27,463 nt of DNA from a virus (taxonomy: Duplodnaviria; Heunggongvirae; Uroviricota; Caudoviricetes). This document shows positions 2,217 through 22,766 of the stretch, piece by piece. Position 1 is the first letter of the stretch; every line of letters starts with the position of its first letter. A program made the position numbers and the translations under genes. The notes beneath the pieces were generated by a model that had not been told where the DNA came from, searched no databases, and worked only from the letters and a program-made list of their open reading frames with translations. The stretch is from the IMG/VR virus record IMGVR_UViG_2545824714_000008, one strand, 5' to 3'.

Positions 2217-2486
2217 CTTAACAGGATGTCGCTTAAGCGAAATCTTAGTTAAGACGCTCCCAATAAAACCACATAAAAAACATATAATTATAATAAAAAC
2301 AATTAGTTAATTTAATTTTTAATGCAGTGAATTGCAATATTCTGCAACCTCCGCCGCCACTTTGCCGCCACTTAAAGCTTTATACCACACAGACTTTAGT
2401 ATACCCGAGTGAAACGCTAACACATGAGGTAGTTGGAAAATTTCCGTATATGTTGTAATATTGATACGCATTATATGATTTTTACC

Positions 2487-2495
2487 TGATATAAT
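2487..2495 (+). promoter_or_regulatory. Extended -10 element (TGaTATAAT), candidate promoter for the downstream orphan ORF
   Basis: TG-n-TATAAT at 2487..2495 in AT-rich DNA about 125 bp upstream of the GTG start at 2622. Confidence 0.35.
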
Positions 2496-2621
2496 GTAAT
2501 TATTAGCTTCAAAATTATTTTTGCACGAATCAGGTATTACCAAGTAGTTGTCAGTTTTTAAAAACCCAACATCCTAAAATTAGCATTGTTTTTTAACCAC
2601 AAAACATCCACGGAGAAGAAC

Positions 2622-3431
2622 GTGTCAAAAAAGGATACAATCCAGATTATCGATATCAGGATGCAGAGACCAATCATAGCAAGAATAGAAGAAGAAAATT
2701 TAAATTTGACATTGCAAATGTCAGATAAAGCCACATTATCTGGTGCGACAGTTAGTTTTTTCACCCCAAATAACGTTTCTATATTCTTATCCTCAGCAAA
2801 AAAAGAGCTCTCAAAATCCAATTCTATATATAAAAGTCTTTTTGGAAAAATACACAAAACCAAACATAAAAACTTTAAAATTTCCGACAAAGCCCTGCCG
2901 AGACTCTATAATTACTTTGAATCAATTCAGACGGCCATTATTTCTATGTATACTGCAATTGAGTCTTTTGCAAATATATGCATACCACATGATTATGTTT
3001 ATGAAAAAAACAATGCCAAGGGAATCAAAGAATCCTATAGCAAAGAGCTAATTGAGCGATATATACCAACAAGTGAAAAAATAGATAAAATCCTACCGTC
3101 TATTTTAAATTGTGATTCGCCTAAAGGTTCAAAACTATGGCAAGATTTTAAAAGCCTTGAGTCACTTAGAAATGACATAATTCACCCCAAGACAACAAAG
3201 AAAAACACAGAAACAAAAGAAGACTCATCTTTTTTATGCATTTTACTATCAGATGACTTTATAAAAAAAGTTTCCTGTGGATTTGATTTGGTATCTTATT
3301 TTTGCAAACAAGACACTACTCATAGTCTTTTCCCAATGGGTTTCGGTGAAATTGAACTTAAACCTGTCCCAATTAAAGCCGGTGACTTTGAAAAAGTTGA
3401 TGATCATGATGAAATAGAATTACCATCATAA
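2622..3431 (+). CDS. Hypothetical protein, low-GC orphan (about 269 aa from GTG 2622; the ORF opens at TTG 2586)
   Basis: Long uninterrupted ORF in markedly AT-rich DNA with GGAG 6 nt before GTG 2622. Contains an R-x4-H stretch (LRNDIIHPK). No family recognised. Confidence 0.6.
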   Translation: MSKKDTIQIIDIRMQRPIIARIEEENLNLTLQMSDKATLSGATVSFFTPNNVSIFLSSAKKELSKSNSIYKSLFGKIHKTKHKNFKISDKALPRLYNYFESIQTAIISMYTAIESFANICIPHDYVYEKNNAKGIKESYSKELIERYIPTSEKIDKILPSILNCDSPKGSKLWQDFKSLESLRNDIIHPKTTKKNTETKEDSSFLCILLSDDFIKKVSCGFDLVSYFCKQDTTHSLFPMGFGEIELKPVPIKAGDFEKVDDHDEIELPS

Positions 3432-3479
3432 CAAAAAAACACAAACCATAAAGACGGCCATAGGTGGTCTTTATGGTTT
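3431..3479 (-). terminator. Rho-independent terminator downstream of int (minus-strand sense)
   Basis: Perfect 13-bp inverted repeat AAACCATAAAGAC / GTCTTTATGGTTT (3443..3455 and 3467..3479) with an 11-nt loop, followed on the minus strand by a U-rich run (GTGTTTTTTTGT). Confidence 0.6.
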
Positions 3480-3547
3480 ACAATAGACGCAGCCGTTATT
3501 AAATTTAAATCCAACAGCGTTAAAATAAACTAACAATATACGCATAA

Positions 3548-4588
3548 TTAATCTTTCCATTTAAAACCATTACATAATGTTAAAGGATTAAATGTTACAG
3601 CCTCCTCAAGATGATCCGGGGAGAAATGTGCATACTTCATAGTTTCACGAATATTCGCATGACCGAGTATACGTTGCAGCACAAGAATATTCCCGCCATT
3701 CATCATAAAATGAGCGCCGAAGGTATGACGCAGAACGTGTGTCTTTTGCCCTTCCGTCAGTTCGATATCCGTTAGTTTGAGCATCTTTTTAAACTCCTGA
3801 TAGCAAGGCTTAAACATCTTTCCCTGCCTTTCAGATAATTCGTCATACAACCATTTTGGGATCGGAACGGTTCGATTCTTTTTCCCTTTCGTTTTGGTGA
3901 AGGTCAGTTTATGTGGCGAGAGCTGGGGACGTGTCAACCTCTCAGCCTCACCCCATCTAGCACCTGTTGCAAGACAAATCTTAACAATCATGGTGAGGTC
4001 TTCTTTTCCGTATTGCTCGCATGCCTGAAACAATTTCGGAATTTGAGACAAAGTGAGCCAAGACATTTCTTTCTCGGCTTCCTTGAAAACACGGACTCCA
4101 TCAAGTGGATTTGGTAAGCTCCACTCCCCTAGCCTTTTGAGCTCATTAAATACAGCCTCAAGATATTGTTGCTCACGATTGACAGTTATCGGTTTAGCAA
4201 TCCATTTTGCCGGGTCTTTATGATAGCCATTATCTATCTCCCCCCGAAGTCGGCGGTCACGGTAATGAGCCCAATCTTTAGCAGTAAGGCGGGATGCAAT
4301 AGGGTCACCAAGTCCATTACACACGATTTGAAGTTTAGCTAACCGCGACTTACTGGCGACCAGTGCCTGTCCGTGTAAATTATGCCAAAGCTGGATAATC
4401 TCACTTAAGCGTCGGCGGTCTTCTTTCTTGCCGAGCCACGGCTTATCCTCACTCTCACTTTTCGTAAATGCTTCGAATGCCTCGGCCTCACCTTTGGTAT
4501 TGAATTGCCGACGTATACGCCGCCCTTCTCGACCATTTGGATAGAGCTCGCATAACCATTTGCCATTTTTTTGCTTACTTACAGTCAT
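3548..4588 (-). CDS. int: Phage integrase, tyrosine recombinase (P2 Int family)
   Basis: 346-aa ORF with the C-terminal catalytic region (HVLRHTF ... LGHANIRETMKYAH) at the prophage end, downstream of the repressor. Confidence 0.9.
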   Translation of the reverse strand: MTVSKQKNGKWLCELYPNGREGRRIRRQFNTKGEAEAFEAFTKSESEDKPWLGKKEDRRRLSEIIQLWHNLHGQALVASKSRLAKLQIVCNGLGDPIASRLTAKDWAHYRDRRLRGEIDNGYHKDPAKWIAKPITVNREQQYLEAVFNELKRLGEWSLPNPLDGVRVFKEAEKEMSWLTLSQIPKLFQACEQYGKEDLTMIVKICLATGARWGEAERLTRPQLSPHKLTFTKTKGKKNRTVPIPKWLYDELSERQGKMFKPCYQEFKKMLKLTDIELTEGQKTHVLRHTFGAHFMMNGGNILVLQRILGHANIRETMKYAHFSPDHLEEAVTFNPLTLCNGFKWKD

Positions 4589-4610: not shown

Positions 4611-4949
4611 TTATTCCCAAAGTGCTGTTGCAGCATCCATTACAGGATCCAAAGGAATTTTTACGCCTGCATACTCCGGGCTATCTTTCCAAACAGTATC
4701 AATATTGCTCCCCTCAAGCTTTCCAGACTTTACTCCATCAATCGCAAAACCATTTAATGGGTATCGGTCATCTGTTGCTTTGTCGTACACAAAGGCATAT
4801 TTACCGTTGACACAAGACACCGTAGCTTTTTCAAAAGTTAACGGCCAATCCTCACCAAACTTAGCGCCATCTAAATCCTGTGTTTTTTCAGCGGCTGAGG
4901 CTCCAAAAGAAAGGGTAAGAAGCAGAGCTAAAAAGAGTTTACATTTCAT
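4611..4949 (-). CDS. Small secreted protein of unknown function (signal peptide), lying between cI and int
   Basis: Probable start is MKCKLFLALLLTLSFGASAAE (ATG at 4949, AGGGA upstream), giving about 112 aa. The ORF extends to 5021 but that would overlap cI. Confidence 0.65.
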   Translation of the reverse strand: MKCKLFLALLLTLSFGASAAEKTQDLDGAKFGEDWPLTFEKATVSCVNGKYAFVYDKATDDRYPLNGFAIDGVKSGKLEGSNIDTVWKDSPEYAGVKIPLDPVMDAATALWE

Positions 4950-4957
4950 AATGTCCC

Positions 4958-5818
4958 TTACACGTGTTTTTCCAATGTGAAAACTACAGCCCCGGCAGGA
5001 GTAATGTCTGTAATGTTGCATTCAAACTCAGCAGACTTATTTGACAACCTGACTTTTCCACCGGGCAAGCGAATTACATCAAAAACATCAAGAGCGCCGT
5101 CGATATCAATTAACCAGCGACCATTACTTATATTCGAAGCAGAACAGTCGACAAGCCAAGAGGCAGCTACACCGTCAACAAAAATCAATTCCCCTGAGTT
5201 AGAAGGAATCATTGAGGGGTCAGGATGCCACGTTCCTGCATCCTTAAGCTCACCAGATTCAAGACGAGATTTTTTAATAGAAAAACCAGATGTGACATCT
5301 TCCCTGTTAGCTCGCATTTGCCCCTTGCCTGTTGCTAACCATTCCAGTGACGTATCGGTATCAAGAGCGCATGTAACAACAACATCACCAGGGAAAAAAT
5401 CTCGCCTTACCCATGTGCTAATTGTGCCAGAGGAAATGCCGAGCAAATCACCGAGCTCCTTTTGCATGGTAAAGCCATACGCATCAAGAATCCTACGCAA
5501 AACGGTTTTACCACCATTCGTCATAATCTCGTCATAAAGCTCTTTGCCTTTTAACTTGCAACTGGCTCGCTCGTGATTTGCATTTGCAAGTTCTCCATTT
5601 ACAAGCCAATTGATATCAGCTCCCGTGTCAAGACAACACCTAACTATGACATTGCCAGGTATTGCATCACGCTGAACCCAGCCGCTAACGCTGTGTTTAG
5701 CGATACCTAGCAGGTCAGCCAAATCCTTTTGCATCTTGACCCCATAGGCTGACATTAAGCGTTCCAATACGCCGTTCGTTGCACTAACACGCCACTGAAC
5801 ATCAAGCTCAGAACTCAT
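4958..5818 (-). CDS. cI: CI-type prophage repressor with a tandemly duplicated N-terminal DNA-binding domain
   Basis: 286 aa. Two similar ~60-aa segments (LERLMSAYGVKMQKDLADLLGIAKHSVSGWVQRDAIPGNVIVRCCLDTGADINWLVNGE and LRRILDAYGFTMQKELGDLLGISSGTISTWVRRDFFPGDVVVTCALDTDTSLEWLATGK) resemble the 186 CI N-terminal domain. Position is next to int and divergent from the lytic operon. Confidence 0.8.
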   Translation of the reverse strand: MSSELDVQWRVSATNGVLERLMSAYGVKMQKDLADLLGIAKHSVSGWVQRDAIPGNVIVRCCLDTGADINWLVNGELANANHERASCKLKGKELYDEIMTNGGKTVLRRILDAYGFTMQKELGDLLGISSGTISTWVRRDFFPGDVVVTCALDTDTSLEWLATGKGQMRANREDVTSGFSIKKSRLESGELKDAGTWHPDPSMIPSNSGELIFVDGVAASWLVDCSASNISNGRWLIDIDGALDVFDVIRLPGGKVRLSNKSAEFECNITDITPAGAVVFTLEKHV

Positions 5819-11933: not shown

Positions 11934-12938
11934 CTAATTTACATGTATGTAGAGTTCACCGTCGCCAGACCAATCGGGACACTCTAAAACAAGCCCAAAC
12001 TGCTTGAATATTTCATCAATGATTATTGTTATCTCCCGAAAATCACCAAAACCTGTAATGTGCTGGTCATTAAACTTCCCATAAAGATTCTGAAAAGCAA
12101 TGCCTAATTCTGATAATTGATATCTTATCTTTGAGTTGGATAGTGTAAGGGATAGCTTTGGATCGTATTCTTTAATATTGATGTTTAGAGAATGGACATA
12201 ACCCATCGCATAAGCATAAGAGTTGATGATTAGCCTGATACGTTTTTTTACTTCAAGATACATGTCATTCAGAGAAATATTACCGTACTTATAACCCCAG
12301 ATGAGTTTTTCAATCTCGTCAGATACTTCATTTACAACAGTGTCAAGATTCTCTAAAAATAAATCGACAGTTTCTTGAGGGGCAGACCCCGAAGACATGT
12401 AATTAGCGAGATATTCAGACCATGCACGCGTGGCTGAGATAAGAAGCGCGCTACCATACTCGTTGACTGTAAAGTTTTGGGCTAAGCATGTTAGTAAGTT
12501 TTTTTCATGTACGTGCACTAATTCATGGTGAATGCGATGGATGACTGCGAGGTATCCTTCTTCTTTCAGTTTTAAGAAGCTACCATCATTGAAAAGCTCA
12601 ACAAAAAAATCAATCGATAGCACAAGGGTATATTCTTCATATAGCCCATCATTGCCAATTTTTGTTACTAACTGCCCGACGGCTGCGCCCTGTTTGCTAT
12701 TGGTAAATGAACTAGGGGATTTGTGTTGGTAAGAGGATGTTACCTTTTGAAGAGCTTCACTGAAGTTATAGGAAACAATCACGCATTTTAATTTGGAGAT
12801 ATCAAGATTGAGATTCTTTGTTAAAGCTCGGATAGCTTCTAGTGTGAAATTACCGATATTATTTGCTTCTTGCTCAGTAGCGAAACCTTCGAGGGTTATT
12901 TTAAAATCAGTTTCCAAAATATTAATCTCCGCGCCCAT
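11934..12938 (-). CDS. Orphan 334-aa protein in a low-GC insertion between cos and the portal gene (candidate accessory/defence gene)
   Basis: Uninterrupted ORF in AT-rich DNA, co-oriented with portal and terminase. Contains an HHELVH (HExxH-like) stretch and no obvious membrane segments. No Shine-Dalgarno evident. Confidence 0.65.
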   Translation of the reverse strand: MGAEINILETDFKITLEGFATEQEANNIGNFTLEAIRALTKNLNLDISKLKCVIVSYNFSEALQKVTSSYQHKSPSSFTNSKQGAAVGQLVTKIGNDGLYEEYTLVLSIDFFVELFNDGSFLKLKEEGYLAVIHRIHHELVHVHEKNLLTCLAQNFTVNEYGSALLISATRAWSEYLANYMSSGSAPQETVDLFLENLDTVVNEVSDEIEKLIWGYKYGNISLNDMYLEVKKRIRLIINSYAYAMGYVHSLNINIKEYDPKLSLTLSNSKIRYQLSELGIAFQNLYGKFNDQHITGFGDFREITIIIDEIFKQFGLVLECPDWSGDGELYIHVN

Positions 12939-21890: not shown

Positions 21891-22766
21891 CTAGCCTCGT
21901 AAATATCGTTTAGTAAATTTCGTGTTTGGTCTGGATGATAGGATTTGTCTTTCTATTTCACTATCACAGTCTATATAGTCTAGTGTATTAGCTTCTATAA
22001 GTTTGTTCACGTCAATATTTTTTGCATCGATTATGTTGGCATTTCTAAGGTTTGCATTGGTGTATTCCACTTTATCCAAATCACACTCTCTGAGTACGCA
22101 ACTTTTCATTTCCGCATTGGAAAAATCCCCACCATATAAATAGCAGCCTTCAAAAATAACACCGTTTAACTTTGAATCCTGAGCTTTAATATTTTTTATT
22201 TTACACTTTATAAATTTTACGTTTTTCATTTTGCTCTTGCTAATATTTAATGCCTGGATTGTACATCCAGTGAAAGAACAGTCTCTTATGTTAGATTTTT
22301 CCATATTTAACCCAGATAGTTCTGAGGTTTTAAAGTGTAAGTATTTAATGGTAAAAAGGTCACCCAACTCCATTCTGGGTATGTCTATATTGAAGACACC
22401 TTTATTGTTGAGCTGTCTTATTATTTTTATTTTTTGTATTTTCAAATCAACATTAACGTGCTTAGCTAAGTTTCCCAAATCCTCAAGAAGTTCATTAATC
22501 GTTTCTTTGTTTTGTCTTCTGTATTCAAAGTAATAAAGGATGACACCTAATACAAAAAAATCCAAAATGGATGAATTTGCATTTATTAGGAACCCAGACA
22601 GGAATGAATCATTGTAATTACCATAGTGTATAGAGGCAAGTGTTACGCCAAATGCATATAAAATAAAAATAATAAACACGTGCTTCATTTTGCATAAGGA
22701 TTGTATTATTGGTTTTATGGCATCAATTTTGTTCATTGCTGCAGCAGCGAAAGATTTAAAAGTCAT
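21891..22766 (-). CDS. Membrane-anchored pentapeptide-repeat protein, low-GC cargo at the S/V junction
   Basis: 291 aa with two N-terminal hydrophobic segments (HVFIIFILYAFGVTLASI, ILDFFVLGVILYYF) and about 19 consecutive pentapeptide-like units in the C-terminal half. AT-rich and on the opposite strand to the tail genes. Confidence 0.7.
   Translation of the reverse strand: MTFKSFAAAAMNKIDAIKPIIQSLCKMKHVFIIFILYAFGVTLASIHYGNYNDSFLSGFLINANSSILDFFVLGVILYYFEYRRQNKETINELLEDLGNLAKHVNVDLKIQKIKIIRQLNNKGVFNIDIPRMELGDLFTIKYLHFKTSELSGLNMEKSNIRDCSFTGCTIQALNISKSKMKNVKFIKCKIKNIKAQDSKLNGVIFEGCYLYGGDFSNAEMKSCVLRECDLDKVEYTNANLRNANIIDAKNIDVNKLIEANTLDYIDCDSEIERQILSSRPNTKFTKRYLRG

Follow-up and report, generated by a model that had tools for sequence, protein, structure and literature searches.

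The stretch of DNA analysed here, 27,463 nucleotides of IMG/VR virus record IMGVR_UViG_2545824714_000008 (hereafter the window), runs from the Escherichia coli chromosome into a P2/186-like (Peduoviridae) prophage and carries, between the attachment (att) site and the integrase gene int of this prophage, a gene for a 269-residue stand-alone HEPN-like protein. The chromosomal part, positions 353–2259, covers the 3′ end of yfiR together with dgcN and yfiB and is 99.95% identical to strain K-12. The prophage, which makes up the downstream part of the window, contains int, genes for a DUF2511 lipoprotein and the CI repressor, cII, fil, gpA, and the portal, terminase, capsid, lysis, and tail genes. 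A first-pass annotation of the window, made from the sequence alone, had described an AT-rich interval between yfiB and int as acquired cargo, placed either at the att end of the prophage or in an adjacent islet. The AT-rich interval is confirmed by the profile of guanine-plus-cytosine (GC) content, which falls from ~0.50 in yfiB to 0.31–0.32 at ~2250–3600 and rises to 0.43–0.49 in int.

The cassette between attL and the integrase gene

At the prophage-free locus of K-12, the match to the window continues across the yfiB/rplS terminator and the final rplS codons and stops at position 2266. The 13-bp attL core, AGTTAAGACGCTC, is found again at attR, beside rplS, in strain JKHS016, which is 99.9% identical over the region. 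Because the core is duplicated at both ends and the identity to K-12 stops at 2266, the DNA from 2267 onward is phage DNA, and the recurrence of the core at attR places the HEPN-like gene inside the att-bounded prophage. The proposal of cargo at the att end is thus upheld by mapping attL and attR against K-12, and the adjacent islet is not. The arrangement indicates that the 3′ end of rplS is the integration site of the phage and that this gene is restored upon integration. The phage P′ arm follows the core, and GCCGCCA repeats at 2353–2373 in this arm, which occur also in the P arm at attR and hence on both sides of the core, look like putative arm-type Int sites.

Two sister prophages, NZ_CP062811 and phage vB_EcoM-613R3, occupy this site, and in both of them int lies directly after the P′ arm. 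BLAST and MAFFT comparisons with these two sisters show homology over 2101–2370 (90–92% identity) and again from ~3572–3581 (83–86% identity), with a gap in the sisters of only ~11 bp. Since the sister prophages lack 2371–~3571, the HEPN-like gene is an inserted moron. The insertion point of the cassette is inside the 3′ end of int. In the sister phages, int ends in ...LYVGDNVAAEVA (...GDNVAAEVA), its final codons lying within the P′ arm, and in the window these ancestral last codons (...VAAEVA*) persist as a minus-strand relic at ~2340–2370, to the left of the insert. A minus-strand open reading frame (ORF) at 2319–2543 (74 residues) was rejected as a gene, its end being the relic of the ancestral integrase C terminus. 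The window int instead ends in ...LTLCNGFKWKD*, the last seven codons of which (NGFKWKD*, within 3548–3571) are cassette-derived. The same order of att, cassette, and int is seen in a prophage of Klebsiella variicola at 79% DNA identity, which argues that the arrangement is old and suggests, as we infer, that the integrase with the altered NGFKWKD tail still works. Of 5,426 complete E. coli genomes, 19 have the cassette, every time at this locus; 49 further genomes match the first 201 bases only (80–90% identity), and among the matches listed the integrase directly follows yfiB with no cassette between them.

The ORF reported by the first-pass annotation, 2622–3431 with ~269 residues, stands, with a GTG start and exactly 269 residues. 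The start annotated by the Prokaryotic Genome Annotation Pipeline (WP_001394629.1) is the same GTG. Two alternative starts, TTG at 2586 and Met14, at which the PHROG profile begins, were rejected; GTG 2622 is preferred because its ribosome-binding site is conserved and residues D11 and R13 are conserved family-wide. A start context identical or close to GGAGAAGAAC precedes GTG in Klebsiella and Serratia and ATG in Morganella. The extended −10 noted upstream of the ORF is present as a sequence element, TGATATAAT, in place of which the Klebsiella copy has TGATAAGAT. Because it has no usable −35 and was not listed by a consensus promoter scan, TGATATAAT is only a candidate promoter. An upstream RNA antitoxin or riboswitch was also considered and rejected: Rfam at E ≤ 1 returned only noise, no tandem repeats were found upstream, and the upstream DNA is conserved only in the E. 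coli and Klebsiella phage lineage.

Downstream of the ORF, the perfect hairpin described earlier is indeed formed by two 13-bp arms and has a folding energy of −22.4 kcal/mol (z = −6.5). At the corresponding position in Klebsiella there is likewise a hairpin, equivalent in structure but different in sequence. The hairpin of the window sits between the convergent HEPN-like gene and int, and GUGUUUUUUUG (a U7 run) comes after it on the minus strand. It is probably a terminator, one that resembles an int-transcript terminator at least as much; as the U-run is on the int side, it probably also terminates the cI–int transcript.

Comparison of the copies from E. coli, Klebsiella, Serratia, and Morganella gives a ratio of nonsynonymous to synonymous substitution rates (dN/dS) of 0.03–0.08, a range that indicates a functional gene under strong purifying selection. 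At least 1,000 contigs carry the common E. coli allele, WP_001394629.1, which is annotated as "hypothetical" in every case. The window allele differs from it by C for A at 2893, resulting in A91 where other homologues have D (DKDLP), and by a synonymous difference at 3119.

Conserved residues and predicted fold

The first-pass annotation had called the gene an orphan, a label that does not survive an exhaustive profile search, in which 1,069 cluster representatives were found at E ≤ 1e-3 and 664 at E ≤ 1e-10; a word-indexed search of relatives returned 15 only. The clusters, all of them unnamed, are spread over Proteobacteria, Bacteroidota, and other phyla. Two architectures are observed: a form of ~260–280 residues, to which the window protein belongs, and a form of ~390–480 residues with an extra N-terminal region in which there is no Pfam match. 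The window protein matches the full length of the profile phrog_17113, a family of "unknown function" (E = 2.8e-180, residues 14–269 against positions 1–256 of 256). Plasmids yield two matches only, in Acinetobacter and Priestia.

The stretch LRNDIIHPK, recognised in the first-pass annotation as a possible signature of HEPN RNases, comprises residues 182–190 and contains the sole Rx4-6H of the protein. By our estimate, the chance expectation for one such motif in 269 residues is a few tenths, so that its occurrence is insignificant alone, in line with the caution attached to the original observation; the significance is carried by conservation across the family. In an alignment of 119 diverse relatives, to which all conservation counts given here refer, R183 is invariant and H188 is retained in 117. 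The position after the arginine is N in 87 relatives, D in 20, and H in 11, such that one of these three residues is found in 118 of 119. This pattern corresponds to the R-[N/D/H]-x3-H signature of HEPN catalytic domains (PMC3710099), that is, a conserved Rx4-6H with a polar N, D, or H right after the arginine. Further conserved residues are E114 (118) and N118 (119), which form an acidic/polar pair on a core helix, K153 (118), R13 (118), and K190 (114).

Profile hidden Markov model (HMM) searches point in the same direction. With PADLOC, the window protein shows a weak match to RTasHEPN (E = 1.2e-4, residues 102–188) and a weak match to CARF_HEPN. Among the 119 relatives, sub-threshold matches are found to RTasHEPN (21), HEPN_RiboL-PSP (6), HEPN_Cthe2314 (4), HEPN_AbiV (1), and DUF3644 (5), the last of which is also a HEPN family (PMC3710099). 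Weak matches to a model with a named domain thus go to HEPN families only, and they align the RNxxxH region. Together with the near-invariance of the motif in the relatives, they sustain the HEPN signature first proposed from a single stretch of sequence.

No family member or close relative has a solved structure. An AlphaFold2 monomer model built from 36 aligned sequences has a mean predicted local distance difference test score (pLDDT) of 84 and a predicted template modelling score (pTM) of 0.82. In the N-terminal half of the model, a four-stranded sheet (residues 14–47) is followed by two long helices, 51–74 and 89–120, the latter of which ends in E114/N118. The C-terminal half is composed of a β-hairpin (127–139), helices 141–162 and 171–187, the second of which ends in R183, another hairpin (191–200), and helices that extend to residue 228. 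The model is predicted to contain a HEPN-like fold, an all-α up-and-down bundle that superposes on solved HEPN domains, the other structure matches at similar Z being mostly short coiled coils or of high root-mean-square deviation. On the evidence of motif, profiles, and model, the protein is very probably a member of the HEPN superfamily. Within that superfamily, the sequence comparisons place it in a distinct, uncharacterised family, outside any named abortive infection (Abi) or defence family tested.

Table 1. Features of the cassette and its surroundings, by position in the window.
Feature	Position	Strand	Remark
attL common core, AGTTAAGACGCTC	2254–2266		Overlaps the rplS 3′ end; common to attL, attR, and attB (K-12)
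Phage P′ arm	2267–2370		89–92% identity with the corresponding arm in sister prophages
Inserted AT-rich cassette, ~1.2 kb, 31% GC	2371–~3571	+	Absent from sister prophages
Extended −10-like element TGATATAAT, candidate promoter	2487–2495	+	Read directly in the sequence
Shine-Dalgarno GGAG	2612–2615	+	6 nt before the GTG start at 2622
Gene for the 269-residue stand-alone HEPN-like protein	2622–3431	+	Only long ORF (2586/2622–3431) in the interval
Conserved acidic/polar pair on core helix, codons E114-S-F-A-N118	2961–2975	+	E114 118/119, N118 119/119
HEPN Rx4H motif, codons R183-N-D-I-I-H188	3168–3185	+	R 119/119, H 117/119
13-bp perfect hairpin	3443–3479		Arms 3443–3455 and 3467–3479, 100% complementary, 11 nt apart
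P2/186-type tyrosine integrase	3548–4588	−	Pfam Int_N and Phage_integrase

Genomic contexts and comparison with known systems

The gene is observed in several unrelated settings. In E. coli and Klebsiella, it occupies the att–int slot of P2-like prophages. In Serratia marcescens, it lies in a P4-like satellite, between the Ogr/Delta gene and int, and the proteins of the P2-like phage and the P4-like satellite are 83% identical. In Morganella, the homologue lies at a prophage or islet end; in Providencia, it is found in a lambdoid prophage with the antiterminator Q on one side and a holin on the other; and in Simplicispira, it belongs to an integrase/IS110 islet. In another P2-like viral contig, a copy directly follows gpA, in the main P2 hotspot between gpA and the portal gene, and further copies are found near the ends of several IMG/VR prophage contigs. 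At the DNA level, the ORF and only ~10–20 nt upstream of it are shared with the Serratia and Morganella copies. The flanks differ in all five contexts examined, and no conserved partner gene is present in them. In Morganella morganii, a pair of genes for proteins of 118 and 259 residues, the larger with a weak RelA_SpoT match, lies ~650 nt downstream of the homologue, with an integrase fragment after it; this pair resembles a small-alarmone-synthetase toxin–antitoxin or defence pair.

Among the other slots, the delta/psu–int interval is the main defence hotspot of P4 (PMC9122126), and the att–int interval is a minor one of P2, with 3% of P2 systems (PMC13586616). As is typical of P2/P4 hotspot cargo, the HEPN-like gene is a variable gene between core genes and att and is absent from sister elements.

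The neighbours of the family were surveyed at 37 diverse loci, taking the two nearest ORFs on each side from crude ORF calls; the locus search was seeded with the 36-sequence alignment, the 119-sequence alignment being too diverse as a seed. The neighbours include Drt4 reverse transcriptases, AbiEi/AbiEii, PDC-S19 (DUF3644), Schlafen-like proteins, and a BsuBI-type restriction enzyme, as well as HipA/helix-turn-helix (HTH) pairs, integrases, and TraG-type coupling proteins. At loci in Xanthomonas and Pseudomonas, the family member is positioned between an upstream DUF3644/PDC-S19 HEPN protein and a reverse transcriptase of 546–551 residues, for which an RVT_1 match is found at one locus; 2 of the 148 neighbour ORFs match PADLOC Drt4. 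This arrangement looks like a three-gene defence islet of separate candidate systems. The long forms of ~470–480 residues in a Yersinia metagenome-assembled genome (MAG) and a Chitinophagaceae MAG start immediately after an upstream ORF pair. In the Yersinia MAG, the start overlaps the upstream ORF and the pair has AbiEi and AbiEii Pfam matches; in the Chitinophagaceae MAG, the pair has the same size and layout. In both cases, long form and upstream pair may share an operon.

A member of the family has been flagged computationally. DefensePredictor lists the homologue WP_050470290.1 (248 residues) as a "Predicted novel defense gene" with a mean log-odds of 12.26, and its remote-homology column assigns this protein to PD-T4-2_B RiboL-PSP-HEPN. 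WP_050470290.1 is a genuine family member (BLASTP 34% identity, E = 2e-25; hhalign probability 99.3%). WP_001394629 was not found in the accessible part of the DefensePredictor supplementary tables. No validated system of Rousset 2022 or of the NAR 2026 P2/P4 survey corresponds to the family.

The closest functional precedent, and a mechanistic template by analogy, is HepS ("HEPN Solo", STM14_3211) of the Salmonella prophage Gifsy-1, a tRNA-cleaving, auto-inhibited tetramer whose activator is the tail-tip protein J of infecting siphophages (PMC13043305). Similar to HepS, the window protein is a prophage-encoded single-gene HEPN protein with an Rx4-6H motif, located in an accessory slot of a temperate phage and lacking a conserved partner or inhibitor. 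The main differences between the two are the position of the motif (R100–H105 in HepS, R183–H188 in the window protein), the extra N-terminal β-sheet and β-hairpin inserts of the window protein, and the location of the gene, which for HepS is between the genes for replication and antirepressor of a lambdoid phage and here is the att–int junction. The stand-alone homologues considered in the HepS study were limited to 250 residues or fewer (PMC13043305). Sequence homology between the window protein and HepS (STM14_3211) was not detected.

Other HEPN proteins are more distant in organisation. HepT, of the type VII toxin–antitoxin system HepT/MntA, is a protein of ~130–140 residues that is always paired with an MNT antitoxin. 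The window protein is twice as long as HepT and shares 7% sequence identity with it (SO_3166 5yep_B, 7ae2_A). An adjacent gene for MNT or another nucleotidyltransferase is found neither in the window nor generally at homologous loci, the AbiEii nucleotidyltransferase upstream of some long forms being the exception. The EC042_2821-like HEPN/DUF3644 proteins (PDC-S19) are, like the window protein, single-protein HEPN candidates for defence, of ~330 residues. Five family members have weak DUF3644 matches, a DUF3644 protein lies directly upstream in Pseudomonas and Xanthomonas, and hhalign aligns its LRHEIEH with LRNDIIH of the window protein, a motif-level hint. The hhalign probability against this single neighbour sequence was only 0.3%, and the window protein, which has no DUF3644 or PDC-S19 match, belongs to a different family.

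The HEPN modules of DRT RTasHEPN, PD-T4-2_B, Csx1/Csm6, lactococcal AbiV, and the AbiA C-terminal domain are RNA-targeting effectors of anti-phage systems. Their weak HMM similarity to the window protein is centred on the RNxxxH helix and is sub-significant, and they have partner genes or fused domains (reverse transcriptase, CARF), whereas the window protein is solo. Against Pfam and PADLOC models of lactococcal-type Abi HEPN proteins (AbiD/F Abi_2, AbiJ Abi_C, AbiU2, AbiV), the window protein shows no match. With the cargo of P2/P4 hotspots (Old, Tin, Fun/Z, gop-beta-cII, PARIS, and retrons; PMC9122126, PMC13586616), it shares the niche and the AT-rich moron organisation, but it is homologous to none of these proteins and has no significant PADLOC match. 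Exchange of defences between P2 and P4 is reported to be rare (PMC13586616), in contrast to the closely similar proteins found here in P2-like and P4-like elements.

The remainder of the window contains several features outside the cassette. A 334-residue ORF at 11934–12938 (minus strand) is situated between gpA/DinI and the portal gene, the main defence hotspot of P2; neither Pfam nor PADLOC gives a match for it, and it may be another uncharacterised defence candidate of the same prophage. A 291-residue pentapeptide-repeat protein is encoded at 21891–22766 (minus strand), on the opposite strand to its surroundings, with tail-completion/virion-morphogenesis genes on one side and baseplate gene V on the other, a position that resembles the P2 Z/fun-type moron slot; it has no PADLOC match. 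The CI repressor (4958–5818, minus strand) has 286 residues and comprises two tandem Phage_CI_repr HTH domains and a CI C-terminal domain, and the DUF2511/YebY-type lipoprotein gene (4611–4949, minus strand) is located between cI and int. At the chromosomal end, an IS1 end at 1–352 abuts the last 103 nt of yfiR (353–455), such that yfiR is broken at about codon 139 of 172, and the downstream dgcN and yfiB are intact. This IS1 copy carries a 38-bp tandem duplication (171–208, 209–246). YfiR, a periplasmic protein, represses the diguanylate cyclase DgcN/YfiN, and its interruption could de-repress cyclic di-GMP synthesis.

Proposed function and alternatives

The position of the gene inside the prophage, its insertion as a moron, the purifying selection, the invariance of the motif, the resemblance of the fold, the solo status, and the recurrence in hotspots lead us to propose that the protein is a stand-alone, auto-inhibited, HepS-like HEPN RNase, a one-gene moron for abortive-infection defence against other phages. 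We assign this proposal a probability of about 0.55. The RNase activity, auto-inhibition, trigger, RNA target, and abortive-infection outcome are put forward by analogy. In a lysogen, the gene would be expressed from its own promoter and the protein held catalytically silent, either by the N-terminal β-sheet (~14–47) and the C-terminal helices or by its oligomeric state. Upon infection by a second phage, a phage product would lift the inhibition, and two Rx4H motifs (R183/H188, aided by E114/N118) would meet across a dimer interface and carry out metal-free cleavage of cellular or phage RNA, be it tRNA or mRNA. Translation would then stop and the infection abort, protecting the lysogen population and the resident prophage.

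A more specific formulation, to which we give about even odds, is that of an uncharacterised family of solo HEPN abortive-infection proteins with its own sensor module, shuttling as a bare ORF, whose insertion rewrote the integrase C terminus without disabling the enzyme. The proposed sensor is the conserved N-terminal D11-x-R13 ... P49-N50 β-sheet, which would be expanded by ~150–210 residues in the long forms. The proposed shuttling would connect the P2 att–int and gpA–portal, P4 delta–int, and lambdoid Q–lysis slots with chromosomal defence islands.

A number of observations weigh against the proposal of a defence RNase. The family is known from sequences and predictions alone. Among the models of Pfam, NCBIfam, and PADLOC, none reaches a curated or convincing threshold with the window protein, searches of PDB sequences with profiles of 14 and of 119 sequences returned nothing, and Foldseek found nothing in the PDB at E < 0.5. 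Of the searches for HEPN or Abi folds suggested by the first-pass annotation, the HMM part returned weak matches to HEPN families only and Foldseek no HEPN structure, and the window protein matched no known Abi family. Close homologues carry a precomputed Pfam label, PF27216 "YopA_C", which is flagged as weak; in the literature searched, nothing was found on PF27216 or on YopA together with HEPN or SPbeta. A tblastn search of 50,697 deposited phage genomes with short- and long-form queries found no relative. The enrichment of defence genes among the neighbours is modest and several loci share one context, and given the crude ORF calls it is to be taken as indicative, not quantitative. Finally, in one of the 19 carriers, strain EC1 (NZ_CP058574), a 1-nt deletion is present in the A7 tract at 2798–2804 inside the gene, which cuts the annotated protein down to 161 residues. 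Either this is a real inactivation of a dispensable gene or a phase-type switch, or the deletion is an assembly or sequencing error.

Three alternative explanations were considered. The protein could be a selfish toxin, i.e. a HEPN RNase that stabilises the cassette or the prophage through post-segregational killing or element competition and neither senses nor blocks phages. This is consistent with the HipA/HTH toxin–antitoxin pairs that adjoin members in Flavobacteriaceae and with the movement of the gene as a bare ORF among mobile elements, yet the flanks, wholly different between contexts, contain no conserved antitoxin candidate, no MNT or other partner, and no upstream RNA recognised by Rfam or as tandem repeats. 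Without an antidote, a toxin has to be auto-inhibited, and auto-inhibition is the logic of a defence sensor; the gene, moreover, occupies precisely the slots documented as defence hotspots. We therefore regard a selfish toxin as unlikely. Equally improbable in our judgement is a HEPN-fold protein that serves its carrier through RNA processing, control of lysogeny or induction, counter-defence, or non-catalytic binding of nucleotides or RNA. Sister phages, including the phage record vB_EcoM-613R3, are without the gene, which argues against a part for it in the phage's own cycle, and the same ORF is found in unrelated, differently regulated elements (P4-like, lambdoid, and integrative islands); the near-invariant R, H, N, and E residues, moreover, argue for an enzyme. 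What speaks for a carrier function is that the gene is convergent with int and lies beside the cI–int lysogeny operon, and that anti-defence genes also occupy phage accessory slots.

Somewhat less likely again is that the protein is not a HEPN nuclease, in which case an unrelated helical bundle would have acquired Rx4H by convergence and the conserved residues would serve other chemistry or structure. The failure of Foldseek to find a HEPN structure, the HEPN-model matches that all stay below curated significance, and the hhalign result against the single DUF3644 sequence would be compatible with this explanation. However, weak matches from many members converge on HEPN families only and align RNxxxH, the N/D/H preference after an invariant R is the HEPN signature (PMC3710099), and the DefensePredictor table independently links a homologue to PD-T4-2_B RiboL-PSP-HEPN. 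As judged from the sequences, the lack of a conserved antidote, the dispensability of the gene in sister phages, and the near-invariant residues weigh against these alternatives.

Returning to the proposed defence RNase, its kind is already known in the form of solo HEPN defence nucleases; this family itself was not previously characterised. Its apparent spread across helper-phage, satellite, and lambdoid hotspots is unusual, yet it is one of many predicted defence genes. The slot between att and int and the replaced end codons of int matter for the calling of prophage boundaries, and hotspot surveys that halt at the integrase can miss genes located outboard of it. The 83%-identical copies bear on the exchange of defences between helper phages and satellites. 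If the proposal is correct, a family that comprises more than 1,000 clusters and is labelled "hypothetical" everywhere would receive a name and a function, and the E. coli pan-immune system would gain a compact 269-residue, one-gene, RNA-targeting immune effector. Because there is no partner gene, sensing and killing would have to be built into one small protein, which would provide, beside HepS, a tractable model for the silencing of solo HEPN nucleases and for their recognition of infection.

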